From Promethearchaeota archaeon (GTDB taxonomy: Archaea; Asgardarchaeota; Lokiarchaeia; Sigyniarchaeales; SOKP01), in contig JAHPZI010000022.1 of assembly GCA_019058295.1 (NCBI GenBank), positions 133,083 through 197,082 on the forward strand: a DNA stretch of 64,000 nucleotides, read 5' to 3'. The position numbers and the translations under genes were made by a program. Under the pieces are notes generated by a model. That model was not told the DNA's origin, ran no database searches, and saw only the letters and a list, made by a program, of their open reading frames with translations. Below, piece by piece: positions 25,681 to 59,419 of the stretch (positions are counted from its first letter, which is position 1; the number at the start of each line of letters is the position of its first letter).

Positions 25681-25697
25681 CGATTTGGTGAAATGTT

Positions 25698-27266
25698 ATT
25701 AATAAGATCAACAGGTTAATTTTTTGCATAATAGATAATGTTAGAGCTGAGCATTTCTTTAATTTCATAAATAGAGGTTTACTCCCTAATTTTAAAAAAT
25801 TAATGGAGGAGGGGATTTTTTCTAAAAATTGCATAACAGATTTCCCAACAATCACGTATCCAACACAGCAATCTTTGATTACAGGAACATATACTGGAGA
25901 TTATCGAAAGGAATTATGTCATGGCGTACCTTTGTCTGATTGGATGGGCCGTGATATTGCACCTCCAAAACTAAGATGCTATGCTTCCAAAAATTTACAA
26001 ATCTATAAAATGAATGAAGATTTGGGGCGTAATTGCCAGACAATTCTTGAAATGATTGACGAGGGAAATACGTCAAGTATAGTTCAGTTTATAAATAGAG
26101 GGGCTGACTTTTTTTTTCCAGAAAATAAAATCAAATTAGCAGTTTATTACTTACTATTGACACAAAAACGGTTTTTTTTAAAATTAATCGCTCTAGCTAA
26201 TACTATTATAGTTCAAAAATTATTAGAAAACTTTAAAAAACCAAAAAAATATTTTGGAAATAATGAGCCTCCTATTTGTTCAAATCTCTTATTTTTTACG
26301 TCAGATATACTATGTCATGCTTTTGGATATGACAATAAATATTATAAATTGAATTTAATCCATATAGATAAGCAAATAGGAATCTTAATAAGTGAATTAG
26401 ATAAAATGGGATATTTAGATGATACTGCGATTGCAATAACTAGCGATCATGGAAATTATAGAGCAGGGAAGACTGGAAGCTTAACAAATTTTTTTGAGAG
26501 TTTTGGATTAACACATTATCACCCTCGTAAAAATATAAAAGGTAATTTTAATTTATGCGGATTTGGTGGAGTGGGATTTCTTAATTTTAAAGGTGCTAGC
26601 TCACATAAATATGGTTGGAGTCATCCTACTATTAACGAACTTAAAAAATATGGTTCAAAACGAATCAATTTATTGGATAGTCTGTTTAAAATAGAAGAGA
26701 GTCATTTAATGTATTATAGAGATACAAATAACACTTACGATAAAGGAATTATTCATTTAAAGCGTAAAGATAGAACCACAGGAAATATTATGTCAGGGAC
26801 AATTGAATATAGAGGTACTGGAAATAATTATAAAACTAAATATATAGCCGAAGATGATAACAATGATATATTTGGATATAGCAACGATGATATAGCAAAT
26901 AAATTGATTGACAATCGCTTCCACTCTATAAATGAATGGATTGAAGGGACTTATCACCTTGATTTTCCAATGTATCCAGATTTAATTCCACGACATTTTA
27001 AAAATCCTCGAAGTTCTGACATTATTGTTAGCACTGGTGGAAAAGTTGTTTTTAAACATGAGAATGAAAAAAACAAAAATGAGCCTTTATATACTCACGA
27101 TATTGGTCTCAGAAAATGTGCTATTGTACCATTAATAATTGGAGGATCTAAAGAAATTCCATATAAAGAAATAACTTATTGTAAAACAACAGATATTGTT
27201 CCGACTTTATTAAAATTCTTAGGGAAAAGGGCCCATAAAAGTGTAATTGGGAAATGTCTAATTTAA
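25698..27266 (+). CDS. Alkaline-phosphatase-superfamily enzyme (nucleotide pyrophosphatase/phosphodiesterase-like), probable ATT start
   Basis: FPTITYP nucleophile motif, DILCH, TSDHG, HDIG. The metal-binding IIDNVRAE..LPNFKKLMEEG segment lies upstream of the first ATG (25803); GGTGA at 25687-25691. Confidence 0.82.
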   Translation: MNKINRLIFCIIDNVRAEHFFNFINRGLLPNFKKLMEEGIFSKNCITDFPTITYPTQQSLITGTYTGDYRKELCHGVPLSDWMGRDIAPPKLRCYASKNLQIYKMNEDLGRNCQTILEMIDEGNTSSIVQFINRGADFFFPENKIKLAVYYLLLTQKRFFLKLIALANTIIVQKLLENFKKPKKYFGNNEPPICSNLLFFTSDILCHAFGYDNKYYKLNLIHIDKQIGILISELDKMGYLDDTAIAITSDHGNYRAGKTGSLTNFFESFGLTHYHPRKNIKGNFNLCGFGGVGFLNFKGASSHKYGWSHPTINELKKYGSKRINLLDSLFKIEESHLMYYRDTNNTYDKGIIHLKRKDRTTGNIMSGTIEYRGTGNNYKTKYIAEDDNNDIFGYSNDDIANKLIDNRFHSINEWIEGTYHLDFPMYPDLIPRHFKNPRSSDIIVSTGGKVVFKHENEKNKNEPLYTHDIGLRKCAIVPLIIGGSKEIPYKEITYCKTTDIVPTLLKFLGKRAHKSVIGKCLI

Positions 27267-27311
27267 TTAATAGAAAGTTATTATTAAAATTAGAATAAGA
27301 ATTTAAAAATA

Positions 27312-27992
27312 TTAAACCGTGTCACTCCTCAGTAATTGCATTATATAATCAGCTACTGTTTCAATTGAATCTGAAATCGCTTCCATTATATCAAAAGTGT
27401 TTCCAGCAGTAAATATTGTAAAGTTATTCACGTCGTAATTTGTTTCTTGAAGACTTTTTCTTAATTTTATATTAGAAATATCTATTTTGTGTTCAAGTAA
27501 ATTAATTTGTTTGCTAAATTCTTTGACTTTTTTCCTTTCTTGAAGCAAATCTATAACTATTTTATCTAAATACTCTACGCATTCCACGGTTGTATTCATA
27601 ATTTCTTTTACAAGGTTGACAGTTTCCTCACTACTTTGGTTCCAAAATTTTATGGGGATTGTATTTATACGCCTTGCTACTCCAGTGGCACAATTTGCCA
27701 CATCATCTTGACGTTTGATCAAATGAGATAAATCCGTTCGTACGCTAGGATTTAATTCACCCTTTGATATATCTTGTAAAATTTCCCTTCTTAATTTATC
27801 TGCTTCACCTTCCAGAAGATCTACATTATGAAAATTAGCATACGCTTTTTCAAGATTTTTATCTGTCAATAAAATATCTATTCCAGTTTTCAATTCTCTG
27901 ACAGATTCTTGAACTTTTTGAGCGTGTTTGATAGATTTTTCTAAAACTGATGTAGCAGTTCTTTTTTTAAAATATTCAATAAGAGTACCCAT
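27312..27992 (-). CDS. DUF47/PhoU-div phosphate transport regulator
   Basis: LEGEADKLRR, QDDVAN, LEHKID, ISDSIETVAD. Confidence 0.88.
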   Translation of the reverse strand: MGTLIEYFKKRTATSVLEKSIKHAQKVQESVRELKTGIDILLTDKNLEKAYANFHNVDLLEGEADKLRREILQDISKGELNPSVRTDLSHLIKRQDDVANCATGVARRINTIPIKFWNQSSEETVNLVKEIMNTTVECVEYLDKIVIDLLQERKKVKEFSKQINLLEHKIDISNIKLRKSLQETNYDVNNFTIFTAGNTFDIMEAISDSIETVADYIMQLLRSDTV

Positions 27993-28067
27993 TTTATTAA
28001 CACACTCTAATTCTTTTCTTAATTAACAATATATATAATTCATATTGTTTAAATAATTTAATATATA

Positions 28068-29105
28068 TTATATCATCCCAAAACTTATAAATCCAAAATA
28101 AATTAATCCTGCTAAAATAGCTGCCACCGGAAACGTTAAAATCCAAAATATAAACATCTTTCCTAATTTGCCATAGTCTACTTCTTTTTTTTTAGCTAAA
28201 TTCATGCCAATAATACAAAATACAATCACATGGCTGTGACTTATTGGAACACTAAAAACAACCGTACAAAACATTAATATTATGGCTGAAGCAAGCTGAA
28301 TGATAAAACCATCGGAGGGACGAGCATCTGTTAACTGACTTGCTAAATTTCTGATAACATAACGACCTGCAATAAATAGCCCCAAGAAAGCTATCAGGGC
28401 ACAAATTACAACAAAAAAATAATATCCAACAATAGTTAAATAGCCATTACTATATAATGCATATAAAATCCCTAAAGCTTCTGCCGAATTTGCACCTACC
28501 CATATTTCCGCAAAAATAATTGCAAATAACAACGCCCAAGCAAAATTTTTCTCTGATCTTTCAATTTCATTTAGTCCTTTCTTTTTTGATAAATATAACT
28601 TATCAATTATTTTATAAAGAAGGTAAGTACCAAGTAAGCCAAATAAAGGACTTAAAAACCATGAAAGTATAACTCCGCCCAATTTTTCCCAATTAAACGC
28701 CATTCCAAGATTAACGCCCCCAGAAAAGATAGCATATACAATAACAACTCCAAAAATACTTCCTATTAGGCTGTGAGTACTAGAGAGCGGTATTCCTGCA
28801 AAAGACCCAATGATTAGCCATATTATTGCGCTTATTAATACTGCTAAAAGCATAAATACAGTATATCTTATTCCTGATCCCAATATTTTTTGACCAACTA
28901 AACTTGCAACTCCTTCTGAAAGAAATATTGTTCCAAAAGCGATAGCAGCCCCTCCTATAATAAGTACAAATTTAAATTTTAAAGTTCCTGCTGCTGCTAA
29001 AGGTGCACATGTTTCATCATTTGCACCTATCGAAAAAGCTAATCCTATTGCTAAGACAATTAAAACGACAACCAAAATGGCCGCTAATTCATATTCAAAA
29101 GCCAT
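28068..29105 (-). CDS. pit: PiT-family inorganic phosphate transporter
   Basis: IGANDE, GIPLSSTHS, VGANS, PISHSH signatures. Confidence 0.92.
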   Translation of the reverse strand: MAFEYELAAILVVVLIVLAIGLAFSIGANDETCAPLAAAGTLKFKFVLIIGGAAIAFGTIFLSEGVASLVGQKILGSGIRYTVFMLLAVLISAIIWLIIGSFAGIPLSSTHSLIGSIFGVVIVYAIFSGGVNLGMAFNWEKLGGVILSWFLSPLFGLLGTYLLYKIIDKLYLSKKKGLNEIERSEKNFAWALLFAIIFAEIWVGANSAEALGILYALYSNGYLTIVGYYFFVVICALIAFLGLFIAGRYVIRNLASQLTDARPSDGFIIQLASAIILMFCTVVFSVPISHSHVIVFCIIGMNLAKKKEVDYGKLGKMFIFWILTFPVAAILAGLIYFGFISFGMI

Positions 29106-29126
29106 ATATCAGACCCTAAATTCGGC

Positions 29127-29798
29127 TCATTTGAAATAGAAGTATTTGGTAGCTAAAAATTGAATGTATTCCGCGAATTTCTTAATATGATTAGCAAGCA
29201 TCTTTATTCCTTCAATTAATTCTTTTAAATAAAGAAAAGTCCTTGAAAGGTAATCCATATCGTAATTCCATAGACGTTCTAGTAAATCCCATTCCTCAAT
29301 CCTCATCTTTCTTCTTTCCTCTTTTATGTATTCGCAAATCTCATGTGCTCGTTCTAAATCAGTTCCAATTGTTTTAACTGCTTCAACTAAATTCATTGTA
29401 ATTTGTCTAAGAGATTTCAATATTAATTCCAATTTAAGCTTAAATTCCTCGTCAGGAAACACTACTTTATATAGTAACATTTTATGTGCTAAAAATTCAC
29501 CAATATCCTTAATATCGTTGATTTTATCAAAGACTTTTAACCGATCAGCTTTAGAGAACATTAATTTGGATTTAAATATTTTAGCTTCGAATGTCTTTTT
29601 TATATCTAGTTCAGTTTTCGTTTCAATTACATGATTCAAATTTTTAGTAAAATTTTCAAAATCTTCTTTTGTTAAATATTCAATTCCATCTATTAATTTC
29701 TGTGTCTGCTCATTTATTGTATCCATAAATAAATGAGTTAAATCATCAATTCTTAATTTTTTAAGTTCCTTTTTAGTTAAATCTGTAATTTCAACCAT
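29127..29798 (-). CDS. Divergent DUF47-like helical-bundle protein
   Basis: Same length and helical pattern as the neighbouring DUF47 proteins (FSKADRL, IKEERRKMR); in operon with pit. Confidence 0.65.
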   Translation of the reverse strand: MVEITDLTKKELKKLRIDDLTHLFMDTINEQTQKLIDGIEYLTKEDFENFTKNLNHVIETKTELDIKKTFEAKIFKSKLMFSKADRLKVFDKINDIKDIGEFLAHKMLLYKVVFPDEEFKLKLELILKSLRQITMNLVEAVKTIGTDLERAHEICEYIKEERRKMRIEEWDLLERLWNYDMDYLSRTFLYLKELIEGIKMLANHIKKFAEYIQFLATKYFYFK

Positions 29799-30100
29799 AT
29801 TATTGATCCCGTTCTTTTTTTTAAAAATTCAAAACCATTATTTCAAGAAAATTAATCTTTTAGGTATGTTCTATTAATCCAATTTAATTTTATTAATTTT
29901 CTATCAATTAATAAATTTATAATAATAGGTTAATTATTTTTTAAAATTGACTAATTATTTAATCCATGCTATAGTTCATTTTGTCTTTTTCTTATTATAA
30001 AGTCGAGAAATTTTTGGCTTGTATCGAAAAAGGTTTAATAAAATCACTTAAAAAAGTAGAGTGAATATCATTATGGTTTAAAAATTATTAGATAACTTTG

Positions 30101-30196
30101 ATAACTTATTATAAGACTACGGATATTGTGGCAACTTTGTTAAAAATAATAGGACAAAAACCACATAAAAGTGTTTTAGTAGAAAGCTTAATTTAA
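30101..30196 (+). pseudogene. Orphan copy of the 3' end of the AlkP-family gene (27171..27266)
   Basis: Translates ITYYKTTDIVATLLKIIGQKPHKSVLVESLI* versus ITYCKTTDIVPTLLKFLGKRAHKSVIGKCLI*; 70/96 nt identical by hand count. Confidence 0.85.
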
Positions 30197-30264
30197 AAAA
30201 TAATTATTTAAGTCAAAATTAATCATAATAAATTTGATTTATGTTTGGAAGGATGGAATTGGAT

Positions 30265-30504
30265 TTAGTCTTTAAAAAAATATTCTGTTCCATTTGAAAT
30301 TGATTTCTTAATTTGTTCTTTCTCCACTAATTCTTGTAAAAAACTGTATAAATACATTTTACCTCCTATTTTTAATCTTAAATTAAATTCTATTTCCTCT
30401 AATTTAAGACCATATCCTTTATTTTCTTCGAATATTTGATATAGCTTTTCTATTATTTCCTTTTTATTTTCTCCTTTTGTTATATCTTCTATTGGTGTTG
30501 GTAT
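30265..30504 (-). CDS. Small winged-helix-like protein (79 aa), probable ATA start; missing from the ORF track
   Basis: GGTGA-N7-ATA, then (M)PTPIEDITKGENKKEIIEKLYQIFEENKGYGLKLEEIEFNLRLKIGGKMYLYSFLQELVEKEQIKKSISNGTEYFFKD*. Confidence 0.65.
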   Translation of the reverse strand: MPTPIEDITKGENKKEIIEKLYQIFEENKGYGLKLEEIEFNLRLKIGGKMYLYSFLQELVEKEQIKKSISNGTEYFFKD

Positions 30505-30557
30505 TTCATTCTCACCTATTCTTTTTTATTTTAAAAATTAATTTTTTATAGACATAG

Positions 30558-30974
30558 TCAAGATTTAATTAAATTCTCAGTAATCCATTTTTTTATTTGG
30601 TTTCTTACAGATCTAAAAAACTCTATTATGTGGTCATCTGCCCCTTTAAATGCAACAGGATCATCAAATGGAGCATGAATCATTTCTTTTGCTTTCGGAA
30701 AAAAAGGACAAACTTTTTTAGCATTATCGCAAACAGTTATTACAATATCAAATTCAACATTATTGAATTCAGAAATATTTTTTGACATTTGTTTTGATAT
30801 ATCAATACCTATTTCTTCCATAACTTTAATTGCGTAAGGATTTATTCTTGAGGGGTTTGTCCCTGCGCTAAATGCTTCGAATTTATCGCTATAAAAATAA
30901 TTAATTAATCCTTCCGCTATCTGAGAGCGCGCTGAATTTCCAGTACAAATGAATAAAACCTTTTTCTTCTTCAT
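30558..30974 (-). CDS. arsC: Thioredoxin-type arsenate reductase (LMW-PTP family)
   Basis: CTGNSARSQ, SAGT, VCDNAKKVCP, DDP. Confidence 0.9.
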   Translation of the reverse strand: MKKKKVLFICTGNSARSQIAEGLINYFYSDKFEAFSAGTNPSRINPYAIKVMEEIGIDISKQMSKNISEFNNVEFDIVITVCDNAKKVCPFFPKAKEMIHAPFDDPVAFKGADDHIIEFFRSVRNQIKKWITENLIKS

Positions 30975-31019
30975 AAAAATTTACCAAAAATCTAAATAAG
31001 AAATATCTTATGGTTTTAA

Positions 31020-31703
31020 TTATGTTCTTTTCGCAACTGTTAGCATTATAATATAATCAGCAGTATCTTCTGCATTATCACTAATGGCTTCAAGAATTGA
31101 AATAAAATTATGGATTTCAATTGCACAGAAAGGATTAATATTAGGATGGTTTGAAAGAAGAGTATGATTTATTATAAAACGTAGCTCATCACATTCATGT
31201 TCAAGAATATTAATTTCTTCACCTATTTTTTGTATTTCTGCCTTTTCTAACGTTATTAAACTTTTAACCATATGGTTTAACATTTTAACTGCCTTTACAG
31301 AGATTCTAGCCATTTCTATAATTGTCTCATGAACTTTTTTATCAAGGTTTAAGAAATCAGTAGGGTTAATATAACCTAGAATTCTTGCTCCAGCATTAGT
31401 AGCATTAGCGACTTCATCAATTCTACGTACGAGATGAATTAAATTTTCACGTATTATAGACGTGAGTTCGGCTTTGGAAAGCATTCCAAGTATATCTCTT
31501 CTTATTATGTCAGCTTCATGCTCTAATTTATCAACACGAGAAAAAACTTTATGAGCAAGGTCAATTTTTCTCTCTTCAATGAAAAATGTTAGCCCTTTCT
31601 CAAATTCTACAACGCATTCGAGAACCTTTTGCATATGAACTAAAGTTTTATTAATTGCGGTCTCTTCATTACGAGATTTAAACCATTCAAACAAGGAACT
31701 CAT
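31020..31703 (-). CDS. DUF47/PhoU-div phosphate transport regulator
   Basis: LEHEADIIRR, IDEVAN, LEHECD, ISDNAEDTAD. Confidence 0.88.
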   Translation of the reverse strand: MSSLFEWFKSRNEETAINKTLVHMQKVLECVVEFEKGLTFFIEERKIDLAHKVFSRVDKLEHEADIIRRDILGMLSKAELTSIIRENLIHLVRRIDEVANATNAGARILGYINPTDFLNLDKKVHETIIEMARISVKAVKMLNHMVKSLITLEKAEIQKIGEEINILEHECDELRFIINHTLLSNHPNINPFCAIEIHNFISILEAISDNAEDTADYIIMLTVAKRT

Positions 31704-31737
31704 TATTCTAACCTCCAGATCTTATTTTTTTTTTATT

Positions 31738-32961
31738 TTATTCTAATTTTAATACTTCTTTTATTACATTATCACCGGGATGTTTAAAAACAATTCCCAG
31801 TTCTTTTGGAAAATAAACTGTCACTTCCAAATTTTCTAAAAATGTATTATATATTTCAGCAGTTGCTGGATTTGTCACAATTATTATTTTTTCTTTACCA
31901 TTTATATTAACTAGAACTTCGAATCTATAAAAAACACCCATAAACTTACGTCTAAAAATTTTTCCATGGAGAGCATTATGTTTTTCTTTTGTTCTATCCC
32001 CTAATCGAATTTTCATATGATTAGCTCTAGTTACTAATAGTACTTTATCTCCATTTTGAATTTTTTCATAAACTGATTTTTGTACATAAGACGCAAAAAC
32101 TTCGGATAATCCTATATCAATAGGTATAGGAATTAAATTCTTTTTGATTTTTGAGAAAAATTTGTCTCCATGCTTTCCATTTGTATTAATATCCCATGAA
32201 GCTTTATTATTTTTTACAAAAATACCTTCAAAATAATTAATTTCACTCATGAAGTTTGCCACAAAAAGATTTTTAGGTTTATAATAGATTTCATAAGGAG
32301 TACCTACTTGTTCAAGTTTACCGTTATTAATTACAGCGATTCGATCAGCAACCATCATAGCTTCTTGTTCCTCATTTGTTACATGTATTACTGTTAATTC
32401 TAATAATTTAGATTTTGCCATTAATAACAATTCTCTCCTTAAATTCATTCTAAGTCCTGCATCAAGTGCCTTCAACGGCTCGTCTAATATTAATAATTTA
32501 GTTTGCTCCAAATTCATGAGAGCACGACAAAGTGCGACTCTTTGTTTCATACCGCCACTCATTTCTTCAGGTAAAGCTTCATTTCTGCCTGTGAGAAGTG
32601 TCATCATTAAAATTTCTTCGACAATTATTTGTGTTTGTACAGGACTACGTGAATGAACACGAGCACTATAGGCAATATTATCATATATTGACATATGAGG
32701 AAAAAGAGCATAATTTTCAAACATAAATCCTAAATTTCGTTTACCAGGGGATCGTTTTGTAACATCTTTATCATCAAAAAAAATTCTTCCAGAATCTGGT
32801 TTAATTAAACCAGCAATTATTTTTAATAATGTAGTTTTTCCTGCTCCTGTTGGTCCAAGAATTATGAAATATTCTCCATCTTTAATCTTTAATGATATAT
32901 CATCCAAAGCTTTAAATTTTTTGAAAGATTTTGATATATTTTTTAATTCTATATCTACGAT
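31738..32961 (-). CDS. ABC importer ATP-binding subunit (PotA/MalK-like), probable ATC start
   Basis: GPTGAGKT, MSGGMKQR, ILDEP, VTN. In-frame N-terminal extension IVDIELKNISKSF lies upstream of the TTG at 32907; GAGGTGA SD 6 nt before ATC 32961. Confidence 0.88.
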   Translation of the reverse strand: MVDIELKNISKSFKKFKALDDISLKIKDGEYFIILGPTGAGKTTLLKIIAGLIKPDSGRIFFDDKDVTKRSPGKRNLGFMFENYALFPHMSIYDNIAYSARVHSRSPVQTQIIVEEILMMTLLTGRNEALPEEMSGGMKQRVALCRALMNLEQTKLLILDEPLKALDAGLRMNLRRELLLMAKSKLLELTVIHVTNEEQEAMMVADRIAVINNGKLEQVGTPYEIYYKPKNLFVANFMSEINYFEGIFVKNNKASWDINTNGKHGDKFFSKIKKNLIPIPIDIGLSEVFASYVQKSVYEKIQNGDKVLLVTRANHMKIRLGDRTKEKHNALHGKIFRRKFMGVFYRFEVLVNINGKEKIIIVTNPATAEIYNTFLENLEVTVYFPKELGIVFKHPGDNVIKEVLKLE

Positions 32962-32976
32962 AAGATTTCACCTCGG

Positions 32977-34122
32977 TCACATTAAAGATAATTCATGTAA
33001 TAAGTCTTTAGGAGCTGTAAATACATGAATATCGTCTATATGAATTCCTACTATCAATATATCTCCTGGATTAAAATTTTCTTCAAATATTCCTGGTTTT
33101 ACTGACAAAAAATTATCTCCATTATCTAGTGATAGATAAAACCTTTTTGTAGCACCAATAAATCTTGTATTTTCCAACTTTGCTTCAAAAAATTGCATCT
33201 TAGACCAATCATAAGGGCTTTTGCCAAAATCATAATCTTTTGGAAATAGATAAACATCTTCAAACCGGAAGCCAATAACAATACTATCATCCAAATTAAA
33301 TTTACTTCCAAAATTATTGCACATAATTTTTGGACCTCCTAAACGTGTCCATACTTTAATTTTTTCGTTTTCTAAGAGCTTCAGAACAAATCCTTGAAGA
33401 AAATTCGTTTCTCCCAAGAAATTTGCGATAAATATGCTTTTTGGGTTCTCATATAATTCATATGGCGTTCCCATCTGAAGAATTTGTCCCGCTCTCATAA
33501 TAATAATCTTATCTGCAATAGCCATAGCTTCTTCTTGATTATGTGTGACATGAATTGCAGTGAGACCTAAATCCTTAATTAAATTTCTTAGTTCATGGCG
33601 AAAAACTTTTGAAACTTTTGGATCTAATGAACCCAACGGTTCATCCATAATTAAAATTTTTGCTCCTGTTGCGATAGCTCGAGCAATTCCTAATTTTTGT
33701 AAACCAGGATTTCCAAACATAGAGGGATAATCATCAGCATTTTCCAATAACTCAACCATTTTTAACGCCCATTCAGCCTTTTCAATAATATATTCCTCAT
33801 TATATCCTCTCATTTCTAAACCAAAAGTTACATTTTCCCATACTGTCATATGATCAAAAATTTCAAAATGTTGGAAAATGAAACCCATATCTCTATCTTC
33901 CGGAGGAATACCGTCTACATTTTTTCCATCTATAAGTACTTTACCATTAGTAGGATTCTCAAGACCTGCTATCATACGTAAAGTTGTTGTTTTACCGCAT
34001 CCACTAGGACCTATCAGAAATATATATTCTCCATCATTAAATTTAAGAGAAATATTGTCAACAGCAAGGACTTTTCCTTCGTCAAAAGTTTTTGTTATAT
34101 TAATTAACTCGATAGATGGCAT
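32977..34122 (-). CDS. ABC importer ATP-binding subunit with degenerate signature motif
   Basis: GPSGCGKT, IMDEP and VTHN present; the LSGGQ position reads MFGNPG. Confidence 0.9.
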   Translation of the reverse strand: MPSIELINITKTFDEGKVLAVDNISLKFNDGEYIFLIGPSGCGKTTTLRMIAGLENPTNGKVLIDGKNVDGIPPEDRDMGFIFQHFEIFDHMTVWENVTFGLEMRGYNEEYIIEKAEWALKMVELLENADDYPSMFGNPGLQKLGIARAIATGAKILIMDEPLGSLDPKVSKVFRHELRNLIKDLGLTAIHVTHNQEEAMAIADKIIIMRAGQILQMGTPYELYENPKSIFIANFLGETNFLQGFVLKLLENEKIKVWTRLGGPKIMCNNFGSKFNLDDSIVIGFRFEDVYLFPKDYDFGKSPYDWSKMQFFEAKLENTRFIGATKRFYLSLDNGDNFLSVKPGIFEENFNPGDILIVGIHIDDIHVFTAPKDLLHELSLM

Positions 34123-34123
34123 C

Positions 34124-35791: not shown

Positions 35792-35816
35792 AATTATTCC
35801 AATCTTTTAATTGGTT

Positions 35817-49970: not shown

Positions 49971-50020
49971 AGGTTTGATTAACTTTAACACTCAATTTTA
50001 ATAATTGTTCGCGAACTCAC

Positions 50021-52423: not shown

Positions 52424-52424
52424 A

Positions 52425-52694
52425 TTACTTATCCTTTAATTTTTCTTCCAATTTTTTAATTTTTTTCTCTAAAAACTCGATTTTTTTTTCTTGTTCGACT
52501 GCGAAAGACATGAATAATATTTCTGAAAGCATTGGCCGGGCGCTCAAACTCCCCGCATCGGCGTGAATTCGAGCAAAATTCATTAATTTGTGAAAGAGTT
52601 CCTGATCTTCGGGGCGAAGCGCTCTTTTAAAATCCTTCCAGCTTTCTATTTCATGTTCTAACGCAGGCCTAAAAGAAGGCACAGTTCTTCCCAT
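52425..52694 (-). CDS. Small helical PolB2-associated protein (arCOG07300-like)
   Basis: MGRTVPSFR..E...W..FKRALR.EDQELF..L...AR.HA.A; abuts polB2. Confidence 0.8.
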   Translation of the reverse strand: MGRTVPSFRPALEHEIESWKDFKRALRPEDQELFHKLMNFARIHADAGSLSARPMLSEILFMSFAVEQEKKIEFLEKKIKKLEEKLKDK

Positions 52695-52744
52695 AATAAT
52701 TACCAAAAGAAGTAATTTGTCATGAAATTTAAAAAAAAATACGT

Positions 52745-52762
52745 CGAAAATTTTCTGATTTC
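52745..52762 (-). promoter_or_regulatory. Motif shared by the polB2-operon and inactive-radA promoters (copy 1)
   Basis: CGAAAATTTTCTGATTTC; 15/18 identical to 55946..55963; just upstream of a TTTAAA box. Confidence 0.55.
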
Positions 52763-52848
52763 ATGACTATTTTAATAGAATTAAAAGAGGATTTAAATTA
52801 TAGAGCTTAATTTAGAGCTCACTTTAGTTTAATAAAGAGAATTTGTGA

Positions 52849-53379
52849 TTAGGAAACATTCTTGTTGCTTAGTATTTTTCTTATTAACAGCTCAAAAGAT
52901 TCGTTTACGTTTTCTCCTGTTAAAGAAGATGTTTTTAAATAATCAAAATAATTGTCATTTATTTCCAAGACACTTAATACTAGATCGTCAATATCATTTG
53001 TGTCCCCGTCGATCATATCATGCTTAGATCCAATAATCAATATAGGGATTTCCCCTTGTTGATCTAACAATTCCAACCAAAAATATATATTATCTAAACT
53101 GTTAAAGCGCGTTAAATCAAATAAAACTAGGGCACCTAAAGTGCCTTCGATCCATTTAGACTTAGGGAAAAGCTTTTTGAATTGTTGCTGGCCTCCTAAA
53201 TCCCATATAACAAGTTCATAATTCTTATTTTCAATTTCAATTTCCTTATAAAAAAATTCAAGACCCCTAGTCATTTGAGTTTCCAAATCAAATTCATCAT
53301 TAACATACTTATTTAATAGCGTACTTTTCCCAACACCGCCATCTCCTGCGATAACTAGTTTGATTACACGATTCGACAT
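52849..53379 (-). CDS. Small Rab/Ras-like GTPase
   Basis: GDGGVGKS, WDLGGQ, SKHD, TSS. Confidence 0.9.
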   Translation of the reverse strand: MSNRVIKLVIAGDGGVGKSTLLNKYVNDEFDLETQMTRGLEFFYKEIEIENKNYELVIWDLGGQQQFKKLFPKSKWIEGTLGALVLFDLTRFNSLDNIYFWLELLDQQGEIPILIIGSKHDMIDGDTNDIDDLVLSVLEINDNYFDYLKTSSLTGENVNESFELLIRKILSNKNVS

Positions 53380-53600
53380 AAATTAAACCGTCTCTATAAA
53401 TCTTATACTTTTAAGTAGAAATGATGTAATAAATACTTGAATAATATTTTCATTGTTCGTGTCATGGTAATGACAACTAAAAAATTGGATTGATCCTCCT
53501 TTTATCTTTTTTGAAATGATGATTTATTTTCCGTTTTAGATAACTTATTTATAATGAGTAAAAACAATATTTACTATACAATATTTAATAAGATGATTTT

Positions 53601-54014
53601 ATGAGTGATGAACTAAAAAAATGGCACGCTCCTTGTGGGATCTATTGTAAAAAATGTCCGGGAATAAAGTTCTATAATTGTAAAGGATGCATAGAACAAA
53701 AAGGTCAAGTAAAAGATTTTCCAGTATGCAAGACTTATGAATGTGTTACTAGTAAAGGGTATGAGTTTTGTTATGAATGTGCAGATTTTCCGTGTGAAAT
53801 GCTTCAACCTATAGTAAATTTCGAGATTTTTGCCCCTCATAATTCAAAAGTATACAATCTAATTATGATTCAAAAGCATGGATTAGAAAAATGGAATGAA
53901 ATTTGCGAAGAAAAGTCAAAATTATATTATGAAGGAAAGAAAGTTAAGTTCGGTGGCGACCCTTTAACACTTGAAAAAAAAGATCCACGCATATATAAAA
54001 AGAAAACAAAATAA
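53601..54014 (+). CDS. Cys-rich DUF3795-like protein
   Basis: APCGIYCKKC, CKGC, FCYECADFPC. Confidence 0.8.
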   Translation: MSDELKKWHAPCGIYCKKCPGIKFYNCKGCIEQKGQVKDFPVCKTYECVTSKGYEFCYECADFPCEMLQPIVNFEIFAPHNSKVYNLIMIQKHGLEKWNEICEEKSKLYYEGKKVKFGGDPLTLEKKDPRIYKKKTK

Positions 54015-54035
54015 ATCCGGCAAGGGATAAGCATA

Positions 54036-55139
54036 GTGTCAATTAGCGGAAAACGTGGCTTACCTCGAAATGTTGTTCTCCATTTAACGGAGAATTGCAA
54101 TCTCAGATGTAAAATGTGTTATTTTTGGGGAGAAACTGGGGCTTATTCTAGCTCTAAACTTGGAAGAAAACCAATATCATTAGAACTTGAGTTAGTGAAG
54201 CAGATTGTACACGATTTAACTCCATCTAAGCCATTTTACAGCCTTTTTGGAGGAGAACCTCTCATATACCCCTTTATAGAAGAAGTTATTTGTGCAATTA
54301 AAGAAGCAGGATCCATCATAGACACTCCTACTAACGGTACATTATTAGCAGAACACGCTAAAATGCTGGTTCGAACGGGTTTCGATTTTGTGAGGGTATC
54401 AATTGACGGCCCTCGCGAAATAACAGATGAACTGCGTGGTAAAGGGAGCCACGATAAAGCTTTTAATGGTATCGAAACTCTTCATGAAGAAAAATTAATA
54501 GCTAAGAAAAAAAGACCGTATATCGGTATCCTTTATACAGTAACTCCCAAAAATTATCTTTCTATTGAGCAATTTTTTCTTGAAGATCTCAACCTATCAA
54601 CCATTAGCAATGTATCAATCCAGATGCAAAACTTCCTGACAGACGAGATGGGTAGTAAATACGCAGAAATGATTAGATCTAACTTCGGGATTACTAGCGA
54701 TAGTTATTGGAAGGGATTTATCAGATCCACTCAAGATTTTAATGATGTGGATACCATAGAGTTGGCCCACCAAGTCAATAAAGTAGTTAAACACTTAAAA
54801 AAAATCGGAAAAATTGTTATACTCGAACCTCCTACTTTCTCTCCAGAAAATCTTAAAGCCTATATCGAAGCAAGATGGAATGATATGTCGGACACTTATG
54901 GTGGATGTTTAGTGCCTTGGATTGCTGTCGATATTACTGCCGCTGGAGATGTAGCTCCTTGCCATGCATTTTACGACCTTATATTAGGAAATCTTTACGA
55001 GAATAATATTGAAGAGATATGGAATGGCGAAAACTATCAAAAATTCCGGACATATATGCGAAAAAATAAATTAATGTCTATTTGTCCTGGATGTTGCATC
55101 CTTTATTTAGCGGGAAAGAAAAAAAGGAAAAAAGAATAG
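54036..55139 (+). CDS. Radical SAM protein with SPASM/Twitch domain
   Basis: CNLRCKMC, GGEP, TNG, SIDG, CLVPW..GDVAPC, LGN. Confidence 0.9.
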   Translation: MSISGKRGLPRNVVLHLTENCNLRCKMCYFWGETGAYSSSKLGRKPISLELELVKQIVHDLTPSKPFYSLFGGEPLIYPFIEEVICAIKEAGSIIDTPTNGTLLAEHAKMLVRTGFDFVRVSIDGPREITDELRGKGSHDKAFNGIETLHEEKLIAKKKRPYIGILYTVTPKNYLSIEQFFLEDLNLSTISNVSIQMQNFLTDEMGSKYAEMIRSNFGITSDSYWKGFIRSTQDFNDVDTIELAHQVNKVVKHLKKIGKIVILEPPTFSPENLKAYIEARWNDMSDTYGGCLVPWIAVDITAAGDVAPCHAFYDLILGNLYENNIEEIWNGENYQKFRTYMRKNKLMSICPGCCILYLAGKKKRKKE

Positions 55140-55151
55140 GAATTTTTTAAC

Positions 55152-55904
55152 CTAGAACCAACAATCCAAGGTCGTATTTTTCGTAGGATTTGACAGCTTC
55201 CTTTTAGAGGTTCGGGGTTTCCATTTTAAAAGCTGTTTTTCCTGTTTAAATGGATGTTGAACGAGTATGTATTCCACATAACGCTCGTCGTCGTTTATCA
55301 ATACCAGCACGCTCCCAAAATGAGAAATGATCTTTCCACCTTTAGGCCTAAAGAGAGAAAATTCGTTCAAAGGGGCAGTCAAAACAATTAAAGGCTTGGT
55401 CTTTGAAAGGATGTCTTTGATTCCTCCTATTGCTTTTAACAAGTCTTCGAAAGTTTGTTTTTCGTAGCTTTGAAACAAGGTCGTGATTCCTGAAACTAAC
55501 ACTACCTTGACATGTTCAAGCGTAGAAAGTCTATTTTCCAGAAGTTCGATCATCTGATCCCAAGTAAACGCTCGGGCAATAACGATGTTTTCTAGGACTT
55601 TTCGAGGCGATAAATGTTGAGAAACAGCAAATTTACTCACATTATACGGATTGAAGCGATTGTTTCCATCAATAAAAGCAACTTTAATCCCATCTCCAAG
55701 CCCTCCATTGGCAAAAGCCTTTTGCGCGATAACTGCAGTTGTCAACAAAATATCTGTCGTCTTTTTTTTGTCACCGTAGAGCAAATAGACTAAATCTTTT
55801 TGAAAACCACCAGACAACAACTCATCTAGCGTGGAATCTCCACTTGAAACGACGGGAATTCTGTTATTTTTTTTGTATACCCTGAATCCTGAATCAAACG
55901 GCAT
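55152..55904 (-). CDS. Inactivated RadA/RecA-fold protein (iRadA, ImuA-like)
   Basis: SSGDSTLDELLSGG, FIDGNNRFNP, IARAFT; Walker A degenerate (YGDKKKT); C-terminal TTLDCWF. Confidence 0.82.
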   Translation of the reverse strand: MPFDSGFRVYKKNNRIPVVSSGDSTLDELLSGGFQKDLVYLLYGDKKKTTDILLTTAVIAQKAFANGGLGDGIKVAFIDGNNRFNPYNVSKFAVSQHLSPRKVLENIVIARAFTWDQMIELLENRLSTLEHVKVVLVSGITTLFQSYEKQTFEDLLKAIGGIKDILSKTKPLIVLTAPLNEFSLFRPKGGKIISHFGSVLVLINDDERYVEYILVQHPFKQEKQLLKWKPRTSKRKLSNPTKNTTLDCWF

Positions 55905-55945
55905 TACATAAAATAATGTGACTTTTAAAAAAAAAAAGAAGCCAC

Positions 55946-55963
55946 CGACAATTTTCTAAATTC
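55946..55963 (-). promoter_or_regulatory. Motif shared by the polB2-operon and inactive-radA promoters (copy 2)
   Basis: CGACAATTTTCTAAATTC upstream of TTTAAA. Confidence 0.55.
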
Positions 55964-56235
55964 TGCCTTTTTAAAAAATGAACATGAGAATTGATTTCTT
56001 TGTGAGAAAAGGTTTTTCTCTTAAAAGAAACTTAGTTTCATAGGGATAGAGTGAGGAGAGTAAAAGTAAAAGTAAATCCAATTGTAAAATTTTATTAGTT
56101 GTAAGTTCCGACATTAATAAAAATAGAACTTCTAATTAAAAAAGATCAACTTTATAAATTTTAAGTGAATTATAATTTTAATTTTAATTTTAATAAAACA
56201 AAAGAATAAATATATTTTAATAGGAGTTGTAAAAA

Positions 56236-56634
56236 ATGTTATTACAAGCAGGTGCAGCCCTTATAGTATTGTATATCTTACTTTTCATATTCTTTCTGAT
56301 ATTTATAACATTATTTCTTAAAATCGGCTTAAGTTTTACATCCGCAGAAAATATTGGATTTGGTTCAGTTTTACCAACGGCTTTTCTTTGTACATTAGCA
56401 ATGTGGGCTTTGATAGTTCTTTTTAATTGGTTTTTACCTGGATTAATATGGTTTATTATTGCTGTACTTATTGGATTGATTATATGTTGGGCTATTATTG
56501 CGGCGCGACATGATATAGGTTATGGCGCCGCAATTGCTGTCACAATTATCGCTGTTATTGCTGCAGTAGTGATAATAATCATTTTGATTATTGTTATTGG
56601 ATTCCTTATAGGATTTGTTCTATGGGTATTTTAA
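56236..56634 (+). CDS. Highly hydrophobic 4-TM membrane protein
   Basis: AGGAG SD; almost entirely hydrophobic. Confidence 0.75.
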   Translation: MLLQAGAALIVLYILLFIFFLIFITLFLKIGLSFTSAENIGFGSVLPTAFLCTLAMWALIVLFNWFLPGLIWFIIAVLIGLIICWAIIAARHDIGYGAAIAVTIIAVIAAVVIIIILIIVIGFLIGFVLWVF

Positions 56635-56695
56635 ACCTAATTATTTTTTTTTTCTTATTTCTCTTATTTCTCCTAAAAAAGGGACTTTAAATGAT

Positions 56696-57166
56696 TTAAG
56701 AATTAATCACTTCAACAAAATCCTTGATTTTATCAATGTAAATTTCCTTCTTTATCTCTTTTTTATTAATTTCAAGCGTTGCCATAGGTTTTTTGTCACA
56801 TAATTTCTCCATATTTTTAAAGCATTTCACACCTCCCTTACTACCTTCAGTGCAAAAGAATGCTAGGTTCTTAAATTTATCTTTGTGTTCAGAAATGTAT
56901 GTTCTTATTGGAGTTGACATATTACTGGCCCAAATAGGGGTTCCAATGATAATTAAATCATATAAATCCGGATTTTTATCTATTTCTTTTAGAATAGTAA
57001 GCTTTTTCCTCATAGCATCTTTACCTGCCTTGATAAATCCTAATATTCCAGATCTTTTTTTTGTGTCAAATATTTCTTCCATATCACAAGATAATTTTTC
57101 TGAGATTAAATTGCCAATTTTCTTGGTTTTTCCTGTTCTCGAATAATATACTACTAAACTATTCAT
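56696..57166 (-). CDS. Flavodoxin-like protein
   Basis: VVYYSRTGKT, IGTPIW, FFCT. Confidence 0.88.
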   Translation of the reverse strand: MNSLVVYYSRTGKTKKIGNLISEKLSCDMEEIFDTKKRSGILGFIKAGKDAMRKKLTILKEIDKNPDLYDLIIIGTPIWASNMSTPIRTYISEHKDKFKNLAFFCTEGSKGGVKCFKNMEKLCDKKPMATLEINKKEIKKEIYIDKIKDFVEVINS

Positions 57167-57295
57167 AATAAATCAAATTAGACTATAAAATTATTAAAAG
57201 TTATTGGATTTAATTTATAACTTAAGATCATCCTCGTTTTTATTAAAAATCTTAAGATTTAATTAAATTTTTTGATAATATTATTCTATTTTTTC

Positions 57296-57874
57296 CTAAG
57301 TATTAAAAGTAAAGTTTATGTTATGTTTTTCGAAACATTCATTAATTTTCTTAAAACCAGGACAGTTATTCCAATCCATCGAATACTCACACTTTTTACA
57401 TATTTTAAGAAAGCCATAACCATGGTAAACATTTAACAATATTATTAATAATCCAAAGACCAAAATGAAATAAAAAAAATTAAGAAAAAACGAATTTTGC
57501 AAAGTCCAAATATACCAAAAAAGAAATGCCGAGCCTAGACCAATTAAAAATTTTTGAATTATCTTAATAGCTTTTATTTTAGTTAAGTTCAATGGACTAA
57601 GAATAAAAGTTGAAATTAAAACCAAGGCTGTAATTAAAAAACAGAATGAATTAAAAATCTCTACTATATTTAAAAGAGGAATAAAAATAATTCCGATTAA
57701 AGCAGAAGGGTATCCTACAAAACAACCAATACAAAATCGATATTTTCCTATATTAATTGTGTGGTTTTTTTCAAATTTTTCACACTCAGGGTGATGACTC
57801 AGAAGGATTGGTTTTATGCATTTAAGATATATCGTAAATGACTTTAATTTCTCTCTATTCACGCAGCTTATCAA
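57296..57874 (-). CDS. Cys/His-containing membrane protein
   Basis: LSHHPEC, FCIGC, 4 TM, C-terminal CKKC..CPG; GTG at 57862 is an alternative start. Confidence 0.7.
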   Translation of the reverse strand: MISCVNREKLKSFTIYLKCIKPILLSHHPECEKFEKNHTINIGKYRFCIGCFVGYPSALIGIIFIPLLNIVEIFNSFCFLITALVLISTFILSPLNLTKIKAIKIIQKFLIGLGSAFLFWYIWTLQNSFFLNFFYFILVFGLLIILLNVYHGYGFLKICKKCEYSMDWNNCPGFKKINECFEKHNINFTFNT

Positions 57875-57887
57875 CTTTTAATATTGA

Positions 57888-58646
57888 TTAGATTTCTTTT
57901 TCAACGATTTCGACGATTTGTGGCAGAATGGTACCGATTTTTTCGTGAAAAACAACTTCTGAATAAGGATCAAAATCAGTTTCTTGAATATTGATAATGC
58001 ATATTTTTGCTCCTATTTCAAGAACCTTGTGTGGATAAAAGGCAACTGGATAGACAAGCAAGCTACTTCCAAGTATAATTAATAAATCACAATCAGCAAG
58101 CATTTTATTGGCGGCGTCCAAAACTTTCGATTCCAATGGCTCTCCAAAGAATATTGCATTCGGTTTTAATATACCATTACATTCTAAACAGTATGGAGTT
58201 GTTCTTTCTTTTACAAACTGATTTATCATAGTTGTTATTGGATAAATTTTTTTGCAATTCATACAAATGGCCTCGTTAACTGTTCCATGTAATTCCACCA
58301 CATTTTTTGTACGGGCTTTTTGATGGAGACCATCTATATTTTGAGTTAAGACGCCCTTTAGCTTTCCAAGCTTTTGCAATTTAGTTAAAGCTTTATGTCC
58401 TTTGTTCGGTTTTGCCCTAAATATTGTTATTCCCAACTCAAACATAAAATTTAAATTCTTGCTGGTGTTCGAAATATAAGAATTAATTGAAGCAAATTCG
58501 GAAGGATCAACTTTTGTCCATAAACCTGTGCCTGGACTACGGAAATCTGGAATACCCGATTCGGTACTCATGCCAGCACCAGTTAAAGCCACAATATTAT
58601 GAGATTTGATTATGAGATTTGCAAAATCGGAAATTTTTCTCTCCAT
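57888..58646 (-). CDS. cobB: Sir2-family NAD-dependent deacylase
   Basis: GAGMSTESGIPDFRS, TQNIDGLH, CMNC/CLEC zinc site, GSSLLVYP. Confidence 0.93.
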   Translation of the reverse strand: MERKISDFANLIIKSHNIVALTGAGMSTESGIPDFRSPGTGLWTKVDPSEFASINSYISNTSKNLNFMFELGITIFRAKPNKGHKALTKLQKLGKLKGVLTQNIDGLHQKARTKNVVELHGTVNEAICMNCKKIYPITTMINQFVKERTTPYCLECNGILKPNAIFFGEPLESKVLDAANKMLADCDLLIILGSSLLVYPVAFYPHKVLEIGAKICIINIQETDFDPYSEVVFHEKIGTILPQIVEIVEKEI

Positions 58647-58870
58647 AAAAATAACACTTATATTATGAATTAAACCAAAAGAATTAATTACTATATTTTT
58701 ATTTATTGCTATGTAACTATTGATATAATGAAACTTTTATTTATTGAATATAATTATAATATTATAAAAATTTAAATTATAAGAGAAGTTTAGATAGGTG
58801 CTTTAGATAACAATACCTTATACAACCAAATTGGAAATTATAAAAAAACTCTTAATTGGTGAATCAGTAA

Positions 58871-59419
58871 ATTAATTCAAAACAATCTTATATTTTTAAA
58901 ATATGTGTAGTTGGGGATGGTGGAGTAGGAAAAACTTCTATGGTTCTTCGCTACACCGAAGATACTTTTAAAGAGAATTATCTTATGACAATCGGTTCTA
59001 ATTTCTCAGCGAAATCTGAGAAGTTTCCAGAATATCCACATTTAAACATTAAACTTCAGATTTGGGATCTTGCTGGACAAAAGCACTTTAGTTTTGTTCG
59101 TCCGCCTTTTTATCGAGGTGCTTCGGGTATTATTTATGTATTTGATTTAACAAGAAGAAGTTCTTTTGCTAATTTACCCAACTGGAAAGAGGAAGTAGAA
59201 AAAGTAGTTGGTGAAAAACCAAGCATTTTGGTTGGTAATAAATTAGATTTAGCAAACCAAGGAAATAGAGAAATAGCATTACATGATGGAGAATCCTTAA
59301 AAAATGAGTTAAATACCTTGTCCTATTACGAAACTAGTGCAAAAGAAGGTACTAATATTAATGATGTTTTTAAAGACACAGTAATAAGGATTTTAAAAGC
59401 ATGCGGAAAAATAGAATAA
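58871..59419 (+). CDS. Rab-like small GTPase, probable ATT start
   Basis: FKICVVGDGGVGKTS lies upstream of ATG 58940; TIG, WDLAGQ, FYRGA, NKLD, ETSAK; GGTGA at 58858-58862. Confidence 0.9.
   Translation: MNSKQSYIFKICVVGDGGVGKTSMVLRYTEDTFKENYLMTIGSNFSAKSEKFPEYPHLNIKLQIWDLAGQKHFSFVRPPFYRGASGIIYVFDLTRRSSFANLPNWKEEVEKVVGEKPSILVGNKLDLANQGNREIALHDGESLKNELNTLSYYETSAKEGTNINDVFKDTVIRILKACGKIE

Follow-up and report, generated by a model that had tools for sequence, protein, structure and literature searches.

Near-cognate initiation at AUU, AUC or AUA (AUH; ATH in DNA) behind a Shine-Dalgarno (SD) sequence is known from Escherichia coli, where two genes, infC and pcnB, are confirmed to use it, and ATT, ATC, ATA and CTG are listed as initiators in NCBI translation table 11. 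These codons are weak in E. coli, with AUU, AUA and AUC yielding about 0.02-3% of the expression from AUG (bioRxiv 10.1101/063800). In archaea, reviews give only AUG, GUG and UUG as start codons (PMC7531240), and SD-led initiation has been described as pre-positioning by the SD followed by local scanning (PMC6237735), for example on the Pyrococcus abyssi aEF1A leader (GGAGGUGA-N5-AUG). The archaeal initiation factor aIF1 of Sulfolobus rejects AUU in vitro, and its eukaryotic homolog eIF1 is autoregulated through a poor start context (PMC4705826). Mitochondria, which are also AT-rich, use all AUN codons as starts, but on leaderless mRNAs and with AUA read as Met. Mitochondrial initiation at AUA, AUU and AUC involves a modified tRNA-Met. 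Non-AUG starts in these organelles have been treated elsewhere (PMC11775629). In the literature searched, frequent use of ATH starts was not found to be described for any archaea, Asgard or other.

The genome studied here is a 79% complete metagenome assembly of a low-GC (31% GC) Asgard archaeon of the Lokiarchaeia type. In the window, the whole 64,000-nucleotide stretch of DNA that was analysed, four genes most likely initiate at an ATT, ATA or ATC codon just 3' of a strong ribosome-binding site (Table 1), accounting for four of the 13 SD-led starts present. These codons are likely to be true initiation codons and part of a lineage-wide habit, although no protein, ribosome-profiling or RNA data are available; no RNA run was listed as containing 25600-33100. 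Their spacing of 6-8 nt from the SD is also the mode for ATG starts.

Table 1. Positions of the ATH-started genes, their SD sequences and the comparators within the window
Feature	Position	Strand	Remarks
Comparator, GAGGTGA-N7-ATG	9175..9191	+	canonical start, ATG 9189; same SD geometry
SD core GGTGA (site 2)	25687..25691	+	N6 to ATT 25698; contains the upstream in-frame stop (TGA)
Type I phosphodiesterase / nucleotide pyrophosphatase (AlkP superfamily) gene	25698..27266	+	likely ATT start 25698, 522 aa
Small genus-specific gene	30265..30504	-	likely ATA start 30504, 79 aa; no Pfam family; winged-helix reading untested
SD core GGTGA (site 4)	30512..30516	-	N7 to ATA 30504-30502; conserved in G007
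ABC transporter ATP-binding protein gene	31738..32961	-	likely ATC start 32961, 407 aa
SD GAGGTGA (site 3)	32968..32974	-	N6 to ATC 32961-32959; its TGA is the in-frame stop
Paralogous ABC ATPase gene	32977..34122	-	canonical ATG behind GGAGG
SD core GGTGA (site 1)	58858..58862	+	N8 to ATT 58871; complementary to UCACC of relatives' 16S 3' end
Rab/Ras-family small GTPase gene	58871..59419	+	likely ATT start 58871, 182 aa

In the Rab-like GTPase gene, an in-frame TAA (58868-58870) directly adjoins the ATT, and the first canonical codon, ATG 58940, lies downstream of the P-loop. Position 1 of the Pfam Ras profile aligns at residue 10, upstream of any ATG, GTG or TTG. At the codon aligned with the ATT, orthologs carry ATG (G001, G003 and G004) or TTG (G006), and in G007 both the ATT and the SD are retained, with site 1 being identical. 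The neighbouring upstream gene is divergently oriented. The phosphodiesterase gene has its first ATG only at 25803, and position 2 of the Pfam PF01663 profile aligns at residue 8, again ahead of the first canonical codon. Here the homologous codon is ATT in four genomes, ATC in one, ATA in one, TTG in one and ATG in at least four, and four species of the genus retain the ATT together with GGTGA-N6, with protein identities falling as low as 78%. Two GenBank orthologs, of 522 and 523 amino acids, begin with MNKINR, which means that the ATT is their annotated start; the NCBI pipeline thus already annotates ATT starts in two orthologs.

The first canonical codon of the ABC ATPase gene is TTG 32907, and a start there would remove the first beta strand. 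Pfam ABC_tran covers residues 19-163, and the extension starting at the ATC is matched by the N-terminus of the adjacent paralog, MPSIELINITKTF. In the nearest ortholog, from G002 with 88% identity, ATG stands precisely where the ATC does and is followed by the same codons; the other orthologs have TTG or ATG at the homologous position. For the small gene, an in-frame TAA is present at 30528-30526 and the first ATG is at 30357. No family was matched in the Pfam scan, and orthologs are restricted to the genus, where the homologous codon is ATA (G007), TTG behind GGTGA-N6 (G002), ATG (G009) or CTG (G001). Its start position is therefore fixed by orthologs without Pfam support.

All four genes are truncated in the public gene calls for the contig, the GTPase to 159 amino acids, the ABC ATPase to 389 and the small gene to a 30-amino-acid fragment. 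If, as is most likely, translation begins at the ATT, ATA and ATC codons, ordinary gene finders trim the front ends of these genes. An earlier note, made without database searches, had described the four sites, and its sequence strings, coordinates, in-frame stops and SD spacings all held. This was also the case for its placement of the P-loop and the metal-ligand Asp motif upstream of the first canonical starts, where the Pfam domains do begin, for the resemblance of the ABC extension to the paralog, and for the comparator at 9189. Its claim that gene callers truncate such proteins held for this contig, with the two NCBI-annotated ortholog starts as a qualification. The exchange of ATH with ATG, TTG or CTG at exactly the same codon, which it had proposed to look for, was found in all four genes. 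The absence of canonical starts, the coverage by domains and this codon exchange are shown.

Genome-wide, ATH makes up 40 of the 87 in-frame codons found 5-9 nt behind GGTGA, counted only ahead of the first canonical start, against a background of 15% (binomial p=2e-11). At the 5' edge of long open reading frames (ORFs), an SD 5-mer precedes 100 of 3485 ATH codons versus 205 of 19088 other codons (OR 2.7, p=4e-14). The enrichment is shown to be specific to the reading frame, with ATH being depleted in the +1 and +2 frames, and to spacing, with maxima at 6 nt (26 cases) and 7 nt (11 cases) for ATH and a spread over 4-10 nt for ATG. Behind GGTGA-N6, ATH occurs 26 times, ATG 9 times, TTG and GTG twice each and other codons twice. 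ATC alone is not enriched genome-wide (5/384 preceded by an SD). TTG occurs commonly, and the enrichment behind an SD extends to CTG and ACG.

Domain evidence was obtained from a Pfam scan of 33 candidates, of which 17 have a domain beginning before the first canonical codon, two are marginal and none is contradicting. The distance from the ATH or CTG to the beginning of the profile is 1-12 amino acids for uS10, the zinc ribbon of TFB, HisA, flavodoxin, MBL, a RagA-like GTPase, the HMA domain of CopA, AOR and rubrerythrin, and five further supported cases came from an unselected set of 20 candidates. The ATH-start set includes the essential genes for uS10, TFB and HisA, and in relatives the uS10 gene has a canonical start at the homologous position. 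Codon-usage coding potential identified about 65 ORFs with at least 15 coding codons before the first canonical start; this measure separates coding from non-coding leaders poorly and gives only a rough estimate. Judged from sequence, ATH starts are likely in at least 2.4%, and roughly 5%, of the genes of at least 100 codons, corresponding to an estimated minimum of about 60 genes in the genome, with about 130 being probable. In sampled genomes of the same order, the pooled data also show the pattern (SD-preceded ATH 22/1033 versus 54/6524, p=5e-4). In the same-genus sample G001 the enrichment was not significant on its own, and one distant Asgard genome (40% GC) lacked it.

The inference in the earlier note that the lineage may routinely initiate at AUH codons is thus supported by orthologs, the genome-wide scan and Pfam, the scan with domain support that it suggested being favourable, frame-specific and sharply peaked at GGTGA-N6/7. 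It needs qualifying in two respects: ATC alone lacks genome-wide enrichment, and 'relaxed third-position discrimination' is too narrow a description, with TTG in common use and CTG and ACG enriched.

The initiation machinery was read from relatives, because no 16S rRNA, initiator tRNA or aIF1 of its own was found in the 79% complete assembly. The 3' end of the relatives' 16S rRNA is GGAUCACCUCCU, of which UCACC is complementary to GGTGA. Their initiator tRNA is canonical, with A1:U72, the GGG/CCC stem and a CAU anticodon, and the exact initiator anticodon arm is found in two genomes of the genus. The presence of this canonical tRNA in the genus is shown; that it reads ATH codons, that Met is the first residue and that aIF1 proofreading is permissive are all inferred. 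Internal ATA codons, such as that in the IID motif, align with ATT or ATC in orthologs, and ATA is therefore still Ile in elongation. A changed genetic code of the mitochondrial type (AUA as Met) does not fit, and a tRNA-Ile(UAU) gene is present.

In 14 of the 16 genomes of the family that were read, ATT or ATC is the sole possible start of the aIF1 gene itself, preceded by a weak, distant SD-like motif. The start is ATA in two genomes of another family, and ATG, TTG or GTG elsewhere. A missing aIF1 as a possible cause was rejected, as the gene is present in all nine genus relatives. Loop 1 of aIF1, compared at the equivalents of R31/Y32/K34 in PMC6237735, was also considered; it reads KRKWGR, unchanged from other Asgard archaea, so that this aIF1 part of the fidelity-residue comparison gave no lead to a sequence basis for relaxed proofreading. 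No simple correlation between the aIF1 start codon and ATH use was seen in three samples; G026 has a TTG-started aIF1, yet ATH enrichment is present.

In the proposed mechanism, GGUGA in the mRNA, often as AGGUGA or GAGGUGA, would pair with UCACC near the 16S rRNA 3' end and set the P site 6-7 nt downstream. The ordinary initiator Met-tRNA (CAU) would then be accepted on AUU, AUA and, more rarely, AUC, by pairing with the first two bases of the codon while a mismatch with the third is tolerated. AT-biased mutation (31% GC) may keep turning ATG into ATA or ATT, which selection would tolerate given a strong SD at optimal spacing. An aIF1 gene started at AUU or AUC would make the level of aIF1 self-limiting, like bacterial infC. 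A bolder reading, which remains no more than possible, is that the lineage runs initiation at a low-stringency set-point, held by this aIF1 gene whose excess stops its own synthesis, and that hence any AUN codon (also UUG, CUG or ACG) can serve as a start when it follows GGUGA by 6-7 nt, in ribosomal protein genes too. As AUH codons are so weak in E. coli, high expression of uS10 and TFB from ATA or ATT needs machinery more permissive than any measured.

Compared with E. coli, the codons, the SD and, by inference, the normal initiator tRNA and initial Met are alike; the scale differs, with an estimated 60 or more and probably about 130 genes, including uS10 and TFB, in place of two, and with ATH outnumbering ATG at GGTGA-N6. 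In both cases the gene for a fidelity factor itself bears a weak codon, but the factor here is of the aIF1/eIF1 type, not IF3. A near-cognate own start conserved in relatives, as in infC-type autoregulation, is found for aIF1; the feedback is inferred. With eIF1, the likeness is a homologous factor behind a weak signal with predicted negative feedback, although for aIF1 that signal is a weak codon and a weak SD-like motif rather than a Kozak context, and the feedback is untested. The archaeal SD-led system shares the anti-SD, the SD core and nearly the same spacing, but here AUU and AUA appear routine. Unlike in mitochondria, initiation here is SD-dependent and internal ATA is Ile.

Eukaryogenesis studies mostly use Asgard proteomes called with ATG, GTG and TTG alone. 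Such calling removes the P-loop of the Rab-like GTPase and the catalytic N-terminus of the phosphodiesterase here, and would leave uS10 a stub, TFB without its zinc ribbon and probably a shortened ESCRT-III/Snf7 protein, with errors propagating to domain inventories, phylogenies and structure predictions. If the reading is true, a free-living archaeon with several percent of its genes started at AUU or AUA, essential ones included, lies far outside the measured SD-using systems. With the aIF1 gene itself started at an AUH codon, cultured Lokiarchaeia would allow direct tests of how start-codon stringency (IF3, aIF1, eIF1) evolved.

Several alternative explanations can be considered. The first is that ATH codons are used mainly through termination-reinitiation (translational coupling), which is known to be undemanding about the start codon, and not through de novo SD-led initiation. 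Counted from the end of its stop codon, a same-strand upstream frame finishes 18 nt ahead of site 2 and 9 nt ahead of site 3, and 34% of the SD-led ATH starts are within 40 nt of the end of an upstream same-strand ORF, versus 20% of genes without an SD. However, two thirds of these starts are not near an upstream gene, operon position does not differ from that of SD-led ATG genes (34% versus 40%, p=0.35), and the gene preceding site 1 points the other way, which makes coupling an unlikely main route.

A special tRNA feature could replace relaxed proofreading as the cause, either an initiator with C34 modified, like the mitochondrial tRNA-Met by which AUA is read, or a second tRNA dedicated to initiation. 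In its favour are the mitochondrial precedent, the dominance of ATA and ATT, and an unusual 27-gene tRNA array in the genome that includes a tRNA-Met with A1:U72 lacking the GGG/CCC stem, as well as the tRNA-Ile(UAU). Against it, the genus has a fully canonical tRNAi(CAU), internal ATA remains Ile, and a third-position trick does not account for the TTG, CTG and ACG starts, which are enriched as well. Modifications are unreadable from DNA, and this explanation is also considered improbable.

Translation from the first downstream ATG or TTG, with the conserved upstream sequence untranslated, is favoured by the choice of the gene callers and by the Pfam ABC_tran model beginning exactly at the TTG of the ABC ATPase. 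It would leave the GTPase without a P-loop, the phosphodiesterase without its metal-ligand Asp motif, uS10 with only 36 amino acids and TFB without a zinc ribbon; moreover, orthologs having ATG there conserve the protein sequence of the upstream segments, and the downstream codons lack an SD. This alternative is very unlikely. Sequencing or assembly errors, or recent inactivating mutations (true ATG codons or pseudogenes), are suggested by the incomplete metagenome assembly and a comparison made with contigs, not raw reads, and at the level of single bases only for positions ahead of sites 3 and 4, and are largely refuted by an independent assembly of the source run that is identical without indels at the sites, the same ATT and SD in four independently assembled species (site 1 identical in G007), intact frames with proteins conserved at 78-94% identity in the genus, the shared pattern in uS10 and TFB, and the frame- and spacing-specific enrichment. 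SD-led initiation at the ATH codons thus remains the preferred reading. A frameshift from an out-of-frame ATG was also considered and rejected; such an ATG precedes the ATH by 5 nt at sites 2 and 4, but orthologs do not conserve it and sites 1 and 3 lack it.

Translation of four genes in the window very likely begins at ATH codons (ATT, ATC or ATA) placed behind a Shine-Dalgarno (SD) motif with the core GGTGA, and these starts belong to a lineage habit; direct protein or ribosome evidence is not available. The earlier note had described the SD, spacing, ATH codon and upstream stop of each site, and had proposed that the lineage may routinely initiate at AUU, AUC or AUA behind GGTGA, in which case gene callers would truncate proteins. 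The description, made from sequence, held exactly; the observation is confirmed, and its interpretation as ATH initiation behind an SD is supported. ATH codons make up 4 of the 13 SD-led starts identifiable within the window. The Ras and Phosphodiest profiles of Pfam begin at residues 10 and 8 of the ATT-started GTPase and phosphodiesterase, respectively. The Pfam model of the ABC ATPase starts exactly at the TTG, and therefore the coding case for its upstream segment rests on the paralog and the orthologs. No Pfam family was matched by the small gene. The public protein collection holds, for this contig, exactly the truncated products (159, 487, 389 and 30 aa for sites 1, 2, 3 and 4). GenBank orthologs of the phosphodiesterase with 522 and 523 aa begin with MNKINR, indicating that the NCBI pipeline already annotates ATT starts for this gene in two related MAGs.

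Features of the window, with positions, motifs and spacing
Feature	Position and motif	Strand	Remarks
Site 1, Rab-like GTPase	GGTGA 58858-58862, N8, ATT 58871	+	TAA directly before ATT; first ATG 58940, past the P-loop
Site 2, phosphodiesterase (AlkP superfamily)	GGTGA 25687-25691, N6, ATT 25698	+	In-frame stop is the SD's own TGA; first ATG +35 codons
Site 3, ABC ATPase	GAGGTGA 32974-32968, N6, ATC 32961	-	First canonical codon is TTG at codon 19
Site 4, small gene	GGTGA 30516-30512, N7, ATA 30504	-	First ATG is codon 50
Comparator start	9189, GAGGTGA-N7-ATG		
Paralogous ABC ATPase	34122		ATG start; N-terminus reads MPSIELINITKTF
Out-of-frame ATG, site 2	25693-25695		5 nt before ATH
Out-of-frame ATG, site 4	30509-30507	-	5 nt before ATH
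tRNA-Thr(UGU) gene	24193-24293		Intron-bearing; upstream of the phosphodiesterase gene
Long frame	24208-25680		

The out-of-frame ATGs at sites 2 and 4 lie 1-2 nt past GGTGA and open frames of 8 and 6 codons. As the orthologs do not keep them, they are probably due to chance, and competition for initiation remains a possibility. The long frame overlaps the tRNA-Thr gene, so its true start must be further in. A tRNA-like stretch is also found upstream of the phosphodiesterase ortholog in the related genome G016.

The checks proposed in the earlier note included a genome-wide scan, a search for ATG and ATH exchange at one codon among orthologs, and a search for HMM-supported N-terminal extensions, and each of these gave a positive result. 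In the genome of the window (3.2 Mb, 30.7% GC, 79% complete), 2633 stop-to-stop ORFs that do not overlap and span 100 or more codons were used, and only in-frame codons from the upstream stop to the first canonical start (ATG, GTG or TTG) were tested. With an exact GGTGA 5-9 nt upstream, ATH made up 40 of 87 codons (18 ATA, 19 ATT and 3 ATC) vs a background of 15% (p=2e-11). When any 5-mer of AGGAGGTGATC at an aligned spacing of 4-8 was accepted, 100 of 3485 ATH codons and 205 of 19088 other codons were preceded by an SD (odds ratio 2.7, p=4e-14). The enrichment is specific for spacing, as ATH clusters at 6 (26 cases) and 7 (11 cases) while ATG is spread across 4-10; at GGTGA-N6, 26 ATH, 9 ATG, 2 TTG, 2 GTG and 2 other codons were counted. 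CTG (6/82) and ACG (5/96) are also SD-preceded at ORF 5' edges far above background, for example at G000:C10:3767 and G000:C25:35280 of the same assembly. The ATH excess above background amounts to ~63 genes, or 2.4% of the ORFs. The coding potential of long leaders, treated as a mixture, gave a rough figure of ~65 ORFs with at least 15 coding codons ahead of any canonical start, which after correction for chance canonical codons could correspond to ~5% of the ORFs.

Ten recognisable candidates elsewhere in the genome were compared with Pfam; the profile begins 1-12 residues past the ATH or CTG codon, the amidohydrolase being uninformative. These include uS10 (ATA, with no canonical codon before position 65 of 101), HisA, the CopA HMA domain and AOR (all ATA), the TFB zinc ribbon, flavodoxin, a RagA-like GTPase and the rubredoxin-like domain of rubrerythrin (all ATT), and an MBL-fold protein (CTG), in which profile position 1 falls at residue 2. 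Among 20 more candidates drawn regardless of recognisability, the same support was found in five (YdjM, Snf7, POR, DUF6512 and DUF5518); another two were marginal, an N-terminal domain was lacking in 13, and no candidate spoke against the extension. In the ESCRT-III/Snf7 gene (G000:C14:97503-98132, minus strand), the Pfam domain already begins at residue 27, ahead of the first canonical start codon (codon 35). This is likely another eukaryote-signature protein cut short by standard callers, with its exact start not fixed.

Each of the four genes was also searched in 30 relatives, of which the close ones are labelled Lokiarchaeota/Promethearchaeota MAGs in GenBank, and the DNA was read at the aligned first codon. 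For the phosphodiesterase, ATT behind GGTGA-N6 is kept in four species of the genus, at protein identities down to 78%, and the aligned codon elsewhere is ATC, ATA or TTG (one each) or ATG (at least four other genera). The GTPase has ATT in the window genome and G007, TTG in G006, and ATG in G001, G003 and G004. For the ABC ATPase, the ATC of the window genome is replaced by ATG followed by the same codons in the closest ortholog (88% identity), and by TTG or ATG in other orthologs. The small gene has ATA in two cases and TTG (behind GGTGA-N6), ATG and CTG in one each. ATG and ATH thus exchange at one codon in all four genes.

Several other explanations can be considered. Translational coupling to an upstream gene could favor weak starts, but 34% of the SD+ATH genes vs 40% of the SD+ATG genes have an upstream gene no more than 40 nt away, indicating that the ATH habit is not confined to coupling. 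Origin of the four codons by sequencing or assembly error, or in pseudogenes, is all but excluded by the exchange among orthologs. In the independent Logan assembly of the probable source run, positions 25600-33100 were covered with zero differences, and no indels were reported from the ATH codons to the first canonical codons. A composition effect does not account for the SD signal, since ATH is depleted when the tested regions are read in frames +1 and +2. A changed genetic code is ruled out because internal ATA codons align with ATT or ATC in orthologs.

The same SD+ATH statistic was applied to 400-kb samples of relatives, and the three same-order samples (G026, G006 and G001) pooled gave p=5e-4.

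SD-preceded codons in 400-kb samples of related genomes
Genome	Relation	SD+ATH	SD+other codons	Result
G026	same order, other family	9/326	18/2105	p 0.006
G006	same genus	6/364	10/2181	p 0.019
G001	same genus	7/343	26/2238	not significant
G067	distant Asgard, 40% GC	4/321	36/3141	no enrichment
G042	distant Asgard, 49% GC	7/202	58/3214	p 0.1

Within the family, uS10 begins with ATA in two genera and with GTG in one; the sampled genomes of other Asgard families have ATG. One genus of this family (locus L148, G016:C7) has TCG at the aligned codon, behind GGTGA-N7; no ATG, GTG, TTG or ATH occurs from the upstream stop to the conserved QKARIRL, and how this gene starts is unexplained. Where the first canonical start is SD-led, TTG vs ATG numbered 36 vs 37 in the distant sample G067 and 31 vs 33 in the distant sample G042 (loci L174-L213), a TTG share far above that of the window's genome (47 TTG vs 218 ATG).

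Initiation at AUH is an event of known kind. The possible initiators of table 11 include ATT, ATC, ATA and CTG, and in E. coli there are two confirmed AUU genes, with AUH efficiency at ~0.02-3% of AUG (bioRxiv 10.1101/063800). Reviews of archaeal initiation list AUG, GUG and UUG only (PMC7531240), and in the full-text literature searched, no account of frequent ATH starts was found for Asgard or any other archaea.

The 16S rRNA of relatives ends in GGAUCACCUCCU, so that GGUGA pairs with UCACC. Their initiator tRNA is of the standard archaeal type (A1:U72, GGG/CCC anticodon stem, CAU anticodon), and its exact anticodon arm was found in two genomes of the genus. The start-codon fidelity factor aIF1 (SUI1) was not found in the window genome's assembly, which is 79% complete; it is present in 9/9 relatives of the genus. 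The aIF1 genes were read in relatives (L128-L133, L124-L127 and L239-L252, none in the window). Its fidelity residues had been suggested for inspection, and loop 1 (KRKWGR) is the same as in other Asgard archaea. In 14 of 16 family genomes, the sole possible start of aIF1 is a conserved ATT or ATC, ~6 codons before the zinc knuckle, with an in-frame stop 1-3 codons ahead and a conserved AAGGTTGTGA-N9 upstream. Two genomes of a neighbouring family have ATA instead, and other Asgard lineages have ATG, TTG or GTG. The ATT/ATC start of aIF1 has a bacterial parallel in infC, whose AUU start makes IF3 self-limiting. Because AUU is rejected in vitro by the aIF1 of Sulfolobus (PMC4705826), aIF1 would be expected, by analogy with infC/IF3, to limit its own synthesis through its AUH start; this link is inferred and has not been shown. 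No simple correlation exists between the aIF1 start codon and ATH use, as aIF1 starts with TTG in G026, yet ATH enrichment is seen there. Relaxed proofreading and tRNA modification are each possible causes of ATH use and were not distinguished.

At G000:C22:30303-33335, ~100 kb before the window start, 27 tRNA genes without introns form an array of two divergent blocks that covers all 20 amino acids. In the three members read, a 3' CCA is encoded or the gene ends in C. The array includes a tRNA-Ile(UAU) and a tRNA-Met(CAU) that has A1:U72 but lacks the GGG/CCC stem. Outside the array, introns are present in 11 of 17 tRNA predictions.
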